Below are positions 7,508-8,041 of a stretch of DNA of 64,000 nucleotides, one piece after another; positions within the stretch are counted from its first letter, which is position 1; each line of letters begins with the position of its first letter. Source of the stretch: Escherichia phage WPEC5. Below the pieces are notes generated by a model that saw only the letters and a program-made list of their open reading frames with translations, ran no database searches and was not told where the DNA came from. Position numbers and translations under genes: made by a program. The stretch lies in sequence record PV654397.1. One strand, given 5' to 3'.

Positions 7508-8041
7508 GGACTTTTAATATTGACGGGATTTGAGGAAGGGATTTTTCTTCCCCCCGCACGGAGGGAAATTTGACGCTGATGGTATCAGAGCTATTGCATT
7601 GAAGATTACTCATAACGAGTGCGAAAGCGGGTCATCCTGTTTCTCTCTACTTCAGTTTCATATGACGGTCTACACTTTTAAACATAGTGTATCTTCATTA
7701 AGTATCTATGCAATCAAATACTTAATGTGAGTACTCAAATTTTGGACGCAACTTTCCTGTACAAAATTCGATAACTCTCCCTTAGATAATTCGTAAGGTG
7801 TTATCCTTATATGTCTATCGAGGAACCACCAGCTATCCTAACGTGGTTCTTTATACAGCCGCATTGCCGTGAGGGGTTCAAACTATGCCCACATCTAACG
7901 GGTTTCTTTTGCTGTTCGCTACAATGAAAAGCTCATCTATCCTTTACATTTTCAAGTGAAGTAGGGGAAGATTGTCAGTACCAGTACTGTCATTGTGATT
8001 GTACATAGATCATTGTATCACCATTAATAAATTTGTCCCAT

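Follow-up and report, generated by a model that had tools for sequence, protein, structure and literature searches.

Positions 7508-8040 of the 64,000-nucleotide (nt) stretch of Escherichia phage WPEC5 analysed here (sequence record PV654397.1; hereafter the window) form a gap between a sigma-70-family factor gene and the next transcription unit, and we conclude with high confidence that its minus strand, from 8005 to 7513, is a functional structured-RNA gene. Its product belongs to a new family of large pseudoknotted noncoding RNAs (ncRNAs), specific to Rak2-like jumbo phages and to bacterial chromosomal islands. The explanation favoured overall, which we consider well founded, is a stand-alone gene for a structured RNA of approximately 490 nt, with a putative role at origins of replication. 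The source phage is an Asteriusvirus of the 121Q/PBECO4 type, within the Rak2-like jumbo phages, near-identical to Escherichia phage EC.P1, and window 7500-7990 is 100% identical by blastn to EC.P1, Ecwhy_1 and WPEC3.

An earlier note, made from the letters of the sequence, had described the locus as a noncoding island of about 530 bp with a terminator on one side and a promoter on the other, and both its coordinates and its anatomy hold: the flanking genes are all minus-strand genes, both the sigma-factor terminator and the promoter of the next unit are present (Table 1), and the longest open reading frame (ORF) on either strand has 66 aa. That ORF (plus strand, 7530-7730), which the note had already called weak, has its frame broken by a 1-nt insertion or deletion in the ortholog of phage UE-S1. 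A protein-coding gene or pseudogene was rejected on the same grounds, since no ORF exceeds 66 aa and changes of 1, 2 and 4 nt in length occur between close orthologues; short AUG-initiated frames behind the Shine-Dalgarno-like AAGGGAG are not conserved among copies. The G+C content, described as relatively rich, is indeed raised, but modestly so (0.40-0.43 against approximately 0.32-0.39 in the flanks). As for the inverted repeats, GAACCAC...GTGGTTC (7823-7829/7843-7849) is real and corresponds to helix H7 of the conserved fold, its arms becoming GAACTCTC/GAGAGTTC and GAAGTAC/GTACTTC in other copies, while GGAAGGGATTTTTCTTCCCC (7536-7555), the other repeat cited, coincides in part with a conserved G-rich hairpin, although that exact pairing is lineage-specific. 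A scan for tRNA and tmRNA found none within the gap region, and neither blastn, nhmmer nor a covariance model detected a second copy of the unit within the window.

The gap is clearly conserved in relatives, whereas the note had regarded lack of conservation, together with lack of a transcript, as the sign of a neutral spacer. A blastn search of the core (about 7510-7966) against 50,697 phage records matched 61 of them, all Rak2-like jumbo phages, with one to five matching places per record (mostly three to five), almost always in unannotated DNA; in the UE-S1 record, a "repeat_region" is annotated across part of the element. The carriers include Asteriusvirus, Mimasvirus GAP32 and CBB, Serratia BF, Yersinia fHe-Yen9-03 and fHe-Yen9-04, and Erwinia pEa_SNUABM phages, as well as Salmonella Munch and 7t3, Klebsiella fENko-Kae01, EJP2, Erwinia Kaldavass and Hallingskeid, and Xanthomonas XbC2 and XaC1. 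Among the 121Q-like phages the core is 96% identical, against approximately 90% for a 701-nt query that includes the flanks, and therefore selection acts on the "gap" itself; between genera, the identity of the element falls to 67-75%. EC.P1 carries four paralogues (A, the window copy, to D), 60-70% identical among themselves and in one orientation, at approximately 56.8, 169.3, 254.4 and 306.7 kb of its 356-kb genome; all four places given by blastn were located, and the sequence inspected covered the genome on either side of 113,265-156,444. Pattern scans added copies from IMG/VR plus 23 copies from metagenomes. Eleven loci were treated as chance pattern matches: L013, L016, L025, L028, L029, L034 and L035 from IMG/VR, which share a 20-nt motif, and likewise L039, L040, L043 and L045; a re-test of seven such rejected loci with a covariance model (R1, built from phage copies) gave no significant match. 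In the aquatic contigs L016, L028 and L034 the 20-nt motif TTCCTAGATAGACCTATAAGG lies in a GC-rich, hairpin-rich context (GGGTGCAATACCC..., GCCTCC...GGGGGC); none of the three matched the family profile, nor did L016 and L028 match the covariance model, and the motif could be there by chance or in a very distant relative.

The fold was derived from an alignment of 21 non-redundant copies (<95% identity), for which RNAalifold returned 72 pairs, 42 of them with compensatory changes. A covarying-helix scan independent of RNAalifold recovers helices that include the long-range, crossing PK-c and PK-d, and the curated structure comprises 81 pairs in 16 helices, four of which are pseudoknots. These 81 pairs are formed in 95.2% of cells, compared with 78.1% after shuffling and 38-43% when the partners are slid by one to three columns; both-sided changes occur at 55/81 pairs, and the covariation score is 0.502 versus 0.192 for the shuffled alignments. 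In four of five whole-structure measures no shuffle out of 500 reached the observed value, and in the fifth, the count of further pair types, 83/500 did so; on covariation, which had been proposed as a check in related phages, the alignment stands above all 500. Every pair of H1-H3 changes on both sides among copies, and covarying pairs are also seen in H5 (AU:15/UA:6 and GC:14/CG:7), H7 (GC:11/CG:8/AU:2) and PK-c (UA:14/CG:7 and UA:14/AU:4/CG:3). In PK-c the loop of H9 pairs 150 nt downstream through 7 bp, five of them covarying, and is 98.6% paired, while PK-d is 100% paired and PK-b changes from AUG/CAU to ACA/UGU and AUA/UAU in other copies. The z-scores of single-sequence folding are weak (-1.95 for the minus strand, -3.07 for the plus strand); it is because of conservation and covariation that the region is taken as more than chance. 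A large structured RNA, one of three options raised at the outset, is thus borne out by strong covariation, by a predicted promoter of its own and by conservation in relatives.

The RNA is assigned to the minus strand because of the asymmetry between G-U and A-C, the promoters and the terminators. Read on this strand, the paired columns hold 77 G-U cells and 22 A-C cells, and the RNAalifold energy is -51.4, compared with -37.8 for the other strand; the single-sequence z-score speaks for the opposite strand, though it is uninformative for this choice. The predicted promoter, which sits right behind the terminator of the upstream gene, has counterparts elsewhere: most paralogues and orthologues, D of EC.P1 among them, have a TGnTATAAT box 8-10 nt upstream of the conserved 5' end ACAAUYCUG. 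Intrinsic terminators in the same sense as the RNA (hairpin plus T6-7) are predicted in the C, D and E types. On this sequence evidence, which predicts expression and RNA ends alike, the gene is probably transcribed early, from host-type promoters.

Clustering of the flanking genes placed the paralogues at syntenic loci common to different genera. The most widely conserved is the D-type locus, present in Asteriusvirus, GAP32, CBB, BF, Yen9-04 and several uncultured phages, with a baseplate-hub gene and a 69-aa ORF on one side and endonuclease VII and an SbcC-like gene on the other; because all of these neighbours are on the opposite strand in every genus examined, the D-type RNA has no co-directional downstream gene. 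The B-type locus is common to Asteriusvirus and Mimasvirus. Copies A, B and C are co-directional with the genes downstream of them, which differ between loci, and copy A is followed by the strong promoter of the next unit. No conserved protein partner was found next to the RNA in the phages or islands examined, and the sigma-factor gene is not linked to the family, because it is a neighbour of copy A in Asteriusvirus alone. With its own predicted promoter, an intrinsic terminator predicted in most paralogues and independence from any downstream gene, the unit is, as read from these sequences, a stand-alone ncRNA gene.

None of the known families accounts for it. Rfam 15 (4,227 covariance models, among them group I/II introns, RNase P, tmRNA, 6S, GOLLD, ROOL, OLE, HEARO and raiA), searched over the whole window at the gathering threshold, returned only five tRNA matches and nothing at 7.5-8.0 kb; four of these belong to a minus-strand tRNA cluster (Thr, Asn, Met, Ser; window 20786-25365), and ARAGORN did not call the remaining match, which is weak and tRNA-like (25287-25365, 32.6 bits). 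Over 7350-8150 at E<=10 the only matches were to terminator-like small RNAs, with 15-22 bits against thresholds of 48-60, and ten diverse copies searched at E<=0.5 gave no match on the element. The Rfam/Infernal search that the note had suggested therefore ended without a family. The element is not described in the literature covered, outside of which lies one 2026 preprint on mining noncoding elements, and is not mentioned in the genome papers of CBB, UE-S1 and Sharanji or in a 2026 review of jumbo phages.

The unit consists of an RNA body of approximately 435 nt and a 3' block (Table 1), and its limits also hold in a copy from a bacterial island (L071:5847-6432, profile positions 3-493). The central core is the most conserved part: model R1 matches it at window 7777-7937 with 162 bits (E=3e-42), and the joiners between its helices, AAAGAAACCCG, AUAAAGAA, CCUNGAUAGAYRUAUAAGG and CUAAGGGAG, are nearly invariant. 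Between the core and the 3' domain lies an optional hairpin module with the conserved loop UACARNAWAGWUSCGUC, which is missing in the D-type and has a second copy in the 3' domain of the C-type and Yersinia-type RNAs.

Table 1. Features of the RNA gene and its surroundings; positions refer to the window unless another locus is named, and nt 1 of the RNA is window position 8004
Feature	Position	Strand	Details
Sigma-70-family factor gene, 322 aa	8077-9045	-	Upstream neighbour of the RNA gene
Intrinsic terminator of sigma-factor gene	8047..8072	-	11-bp stem (8072-8047), then T-run; upstream boundary, outside the RNA
Predicted promoter of RNA gene	8012..8039	-	-35 GGGACA, 16-nt spacer, extended -10 TGaTACAAT; start at about 8005
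Whole conserved unit, about 490 nt	7513..8005	-	nhmmer E=6e-115 to family profile
5' domain (nt 1-87)	7918..8004	-	H1-H3 and PK-a
5' domain helices	H1 7996-7991/7925-7921; H2 7988-7984/7979-7976; H3 7958-7954/7944-7940; PK-a 7932-7930/7920-7918	-	H2 is a variable hairpin
Central core (nt 88-228)	7777..7917	-	H5-H8 and PK-b
Core helices	H5 7915-7911/7859-7855; H6 7901-7898/7870-7867; H7 7849-7843/7829-7823; H8 7809-7806/7797-7794; PK-b 7864-7862/7813-7811	-	
Optional hairpin module (nt 229-277)	7728..7776	-	Conserved loop UACAGGAAAGUUGCGUC; pairing read by eye, outside the counted structure
3' domain (nt 278-412)	7593..7727	-	H9-H13, PK-c and PK-d
3' domain helices	H9 7727-7718/7705-7696; H11 7654-7650/7604-7600; H12 7647-7643/7627-7623; H13 7620-7618/7610-7608	-	
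3' domain pseudoknots	PK-c 7714-7708/7599-7593; PK-d 7666-7662/7635-7631	-	PK-c joins the H9 loop with AUGCAAU
Variable hairpin of 3' domain	7691-7686/7676-7671	-	Read by eye, outside the counted structure
Small hairpin, then DR1 (nt 417-436)	7569..7588	-	CUGAU-ACC-AUCAG, then CAUCAGCGUCAAA; from alignments
3' block (nt 438-487)	7513..7567	-	G-rich hairpin and DR2; in every phage and island copy
G-rich hairpin, 8-10 bp	7567-7548	-	UUCCCUCC-GUGC-GGGGGGAA
DR2, second motif copy	7531-7518	-	AAAUCCCGUCAAUA; from alignments
Promoter of next transcription unit, sigma-70-type	7479..7507	-	TTGACA-17-TAGAAT, near-consensus; downstream boundary
Paralogues in EC.P1	A, window copy; D, L008:12855-13360; C, L007:47946-48521; B, L005:298-810		

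The 3' block, with its conserved G6 run, is kept everywhere, even downstream of the canonical terminator (hairpin plus T6-7) that the C, D and E types and the island copies carry between DR1 and the G-rich hairpin. The G-rich stem varies by C-to-U alone, and on the 5' arm only, and therefore the hairpin folds in the RNA-sense strand. Each unit contains the motif AUC(A)UCGUCAR in two places, as DR1 (window 7569-7581) and DR2 (7518-7531), and inspection of the alignments by eye found no pairing partner for it. DR1 and DR2 agree in their A/G position in 27/30 cases, a concordance that may be phylogenetic; in one Serratia island (L074), both copies read CGACAA, compared with CGUCAA in both copies of its 86% identical relative (L075), and this joint change hints that one partner reads both.

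Outside the phages, the RNA occurs in bacterial chromosomal islands. Among 5,426 complete E. coli genomes, two have a 96-nt blastn match; in one, strain LR-29-1, the alignment to the family profile is complete (L071:5847-6432, E=3e-117) and takes in the internal terminator, the G-rich hairpin and DR2. The LR-29-1 island, of approximately 10.7 kb, lies between ffs and ybaA (NZ_AP027515.1, ~3,472,900-3,483,650; L071 and L076) and encodes a tyrosine integrase split by IS3, a small serine recombinase, a 303-aa CxxC-rich protein, DuOB, DUF488 and DUF4326, with no replication or packaging genes; DuOB and DUF488 match the candidate defence system PDC-M45, and the adjacent DUF4326 has no PADLOC match. 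By eye, a membrane/coiled-coil protein of this island resembles one in the Silvania island, and a small protein shows a ParB-like DGRHR motif, with no match in Pfam or PADLOC. Four more copies, in Silvania hatchlandensis and three Serratia, came to light when 185,579 species-representative genomes were scanned with a relaxed pattern; a stricter one had found none. These four lie in small islands that encode large serine recombinases, in two cases immediately upstream of the RNA, as well as a CI-like S24 repressor or a ParB/RepB protein. For the island copies, too, extended -10 promoters of their own are predicted, with a spacing that differs from that in phage copies. Of the phage-derived pairs, 84-96% are preserved in these copies, which had been held out from the structure analysis, and 19-31 pairs differ from the window copy on both sides; model R1, whose training set was limited to phage copies, detects them at E=9e-34 to 7e-14. 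The island copies represent at least three lineages, two of which are closest (~80%) to D-type phage copies, and the transfer was likely from phage to island. No flanking phage protein accompanied the RNA into the islands, and therefore the unit is functional on its own. The islands appear to exploit Rak2-like jumbo phages; there is a precedent for a jumbo phage mobilising islands devoid of transfer genes (PMC12595487).

As to function, we envisage, by analogy and tentatively, a cis-linked replication-origin or primer transcript as the single most likely mechanism. Host RNA polymerase would transcribe the RNA early in infection, and the folded RNA and its G-rich 3' block, through an rG:dC hybrid, would form or regulate a persistent RNA-DNA hybrid that could prime DNA synthesis, as do the R-loop origins of T4 and the pre-primer RNA II of ColE1. 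If several origins served a 350-kb genome, this would account for divergent, co-oriented paralogues at fixed, dispersed and syntenic positions, and islands without replication genes but carrying one unit might be amplified by the helper phage; plasmids bearing T4 origins are amplified by the infecting phage. Consistent with this are the dispersed, position-conserved copies, with a predicted promoter-driven ncRNA at four dispersed loci of EC.P1, and the block with the G6 run, kept even beyond the terminator and able to fold in the RNA-sense strand only. The replication part of the cis-element option raised by the note thus becomes the leading mechanism, and the unit may perhaps be a portable "replicate-me" or "mobilise-me" RNA module, licensing several phage origins and repeatedly captured by defence-carrying islands for amplification and transduction.

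Several observations weigh against an origin. The transcripts of T4 ori(uvsY) and ori(34) and RNA II of ColE1 are not known to be so ornate, and four pseudoknots with invariant loops are more typical of ribozymes and of RNAs in ribonucleoproteins (RNPs). The G-rich block of many copies lies beyond a terminator, so that most transcripts may stop short of it, and the 60 nt downstream contain 65-82% A+T in a genome of 65% A+T, with no clear unwinding element. The B-type paralogue lacks an obvious sigma-70 promoter. All recovered copies are on one strand per genome (8/8 genomes), but this is weak evidence, since most genes share that strand. The skew analysis that had been suggested as a search for origin-like features showed no inflection of GC skew at 7508-8040, a measure that is in any case not informative for T4-like phages.

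It is also possible, if doubtful, that the RNA acts in trans as an anti-defence or decoy RNA, abundant right after infection, which mimics or sequesters a host immune or RNA-processing component; islands would carry it for self-protection in a new cell or, conversely, to titrate a phage factor. The predicted early host-type promoters, the dosage provided by several gene copies and the uptake of the whole promoter-RNA unit by islands with candidate defence genes (DuOB and DUF488 of PDC-M45) would fit such a role, for which the abundant long ncRNAs (lncRNAs) of the related jumbo phage PA5oct offer an analogy (PMC7318152). However, dosage alone leaves the retention of 60-70% identical paralogues at syntenic, dispersed positions unexplained, no conserved protein partner adjoins the RNA in phages or islands, and apart from the two island copies no host RNA in the 5,426 E. 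coli genomes resembles the element.

An ornate RNP, ribozyme or self-assembling RNA like OLE, GOLLD and ROOL, catalytic or scaffolding in some phage process and possibly processed at the two repeated AUC(A)UCGUCAG sites, would likewise be a possible but rather unlikely reading. The analogy draws on size, four pseudoknots, invariant single-stranded segments and modular optional domains, as well as on the joint change of both 3' motif copies in one island lineage; against it, no ribozyme or large RNA of Rfam 15 matched even at permissive thresholds, no conserved protein is adjacent and, unlike GOLLD and ROOL, the RNA is not near tRNA genes.

It is very improbable that the RNA serves the operon immediately downstream as a cis-regulatory leader, attenuator or antiterminator: copies A, B and C are indeed co-directional with downstream genes, and a conserved hairpin follows the terminator, but the D-type RNA, which is convergent with the genes beside it in every genus examined, largely refutes the idea; the separate strong promoter after copy A, downstream genes that differ between loci and islands that keep the RNA without phage genes also count against it. 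To a DNA-level element without functional RNA (a packaging site, protein-binding array or cruciform), or to the decayed gene or neutral spacer that the note had also considered, we give next to no credence, for although the inverted repeats would form in DNA as well and Watson-Crick covariation by itself favours neither strand, the 77:22 ratio of G-U to A-C, the one-sided C-to-U variation of the G-rich hairpin, the pseudoknotted long-range pairs and the conserved promoter and terminators argue against these readings, as do the absence of a conserved frame, length changes that are not multiples of three and a core more conserved than its flanks. Packaging, the other half of the cis-element option, is unlikely with three to five dispersed copies, since terminal-repeat phages need one or two sites, and a packaging site was rejected because copy positions have no consistent relation to the reported terminal repeats (PMC5259590, PMC12805682, PMC11895373).

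Some further observations concern individual genomes. In Escherichia virus TH47 (MT446416.1, an UNVERIFIED record), a 214-aa ORF (L047:2121-2765) lies between the sigma-factor gene and the RNA gene and replaces the usual promoter region; its sequence (e.g., KKYHLGAFPTPEEAHAKW), judged by eye, is suggestive of a homing-endonuclease DNA-binding domain of the AP2 type. At this A locus the RNA itself has a D-like body plus a second hairpin module, which suggests recombination between paralogues. In EC.P1, about 2 kb at 10013-11996 (L002, EC.P1 1-49999) have no annotated gene and no copy of the RNA, and approximately 13 tandem genes of similar size (~340-450 aa) occupy 16897-33490 on the opposite strand, their size and spacing suggesting paralogues.

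Large complex ncRNAs are rare, and nearly all of those characterised have proved to be ribozymes or cores of important RNPs. The RNA described here has about 500 nt, four pseudoknots and unusually clean covariation. An entire clade of 350-kb phages maintains several copies of it; these phages are under development for therapeutic use, and the majority of their genes lack a functional assignment. Integrative islands with candidate defence genes have captured the RNA independently, which ties it to the newly recognised interplay between jumbo phages and satellite-like islands. An origin module, if confirmed, would represent a novel type of origin as well as a satellite strategy, likewise new, that relies on an ncRNA; a new class of large ribozyme or RNP would be just as novel an alternative. 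Culturable E. coli phages, a portable 0.5-kb unit and natural variants provide experimental handles.

Among known systems, the packaging RNA (pRNA) of phi29 is, like the jumbo-phage RNA as we picture it, a phage-encoded, early-transcribed structured RNA serving a DNA transaction, but it is a single-copy RNA of 174 nt, specific to the phi29 packaging motor, and the two share no similarity; no T4-like packaging motor is known to require RNA. The lncRNAs of PA5oct (ncRNA001-004), a phage of the wider Rak2-like clade, were defined by RNA-seq as "putative lncRNAs", two of them very abundant throughout infection (PMC7318152). They are likewise four per genome, ORF-free and intergenic, with 236-619 nt (one of 451 nt), yet no structure or family has been described for them, and homology was sought for ncRNA001 and ncRNA002 in the region that holds both (MK797984, 7000-24000) and rejected, nhmmer --max at E<=10 and model R1 at E<=1 giving no match. 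With GOLLD, ROOL and OLE the RNA shares large size (~500 nt), several domains, pseudoknots, conserved loops and discovery by comparative analysis, and with GOLLD and ROOL an association with phages. It does not match their Rfam models, however, and is found in virulent jumbo phages of Gram-negative bacteria, not in Firmicutes prophages, as three to five dispersed paralogues per genome and, unlike GOLLD and ROOL, away from tRNA genes (the nearest at 20.8-25.4 kb in the window). From the origin RNAs of T4 and ColE1 it differs in being far more elaborate and sequence-conserved, in having no homology to them and in the terminator that often precedes the G-rich block. Nevertheless, it resembles T4 ori(uvsY) and ori(34) as a predicted promoter-driven noncoding transcript at several dispersed sites of a T4-like genome, and RNA II of ColE1 as a structured RNA of approximately 500 nt, with a G-rich segment that could stabilise a hybrid; as with those origins, a cloned unit could in principle replicate foreign DNA on infection, which would match its capture by islands.

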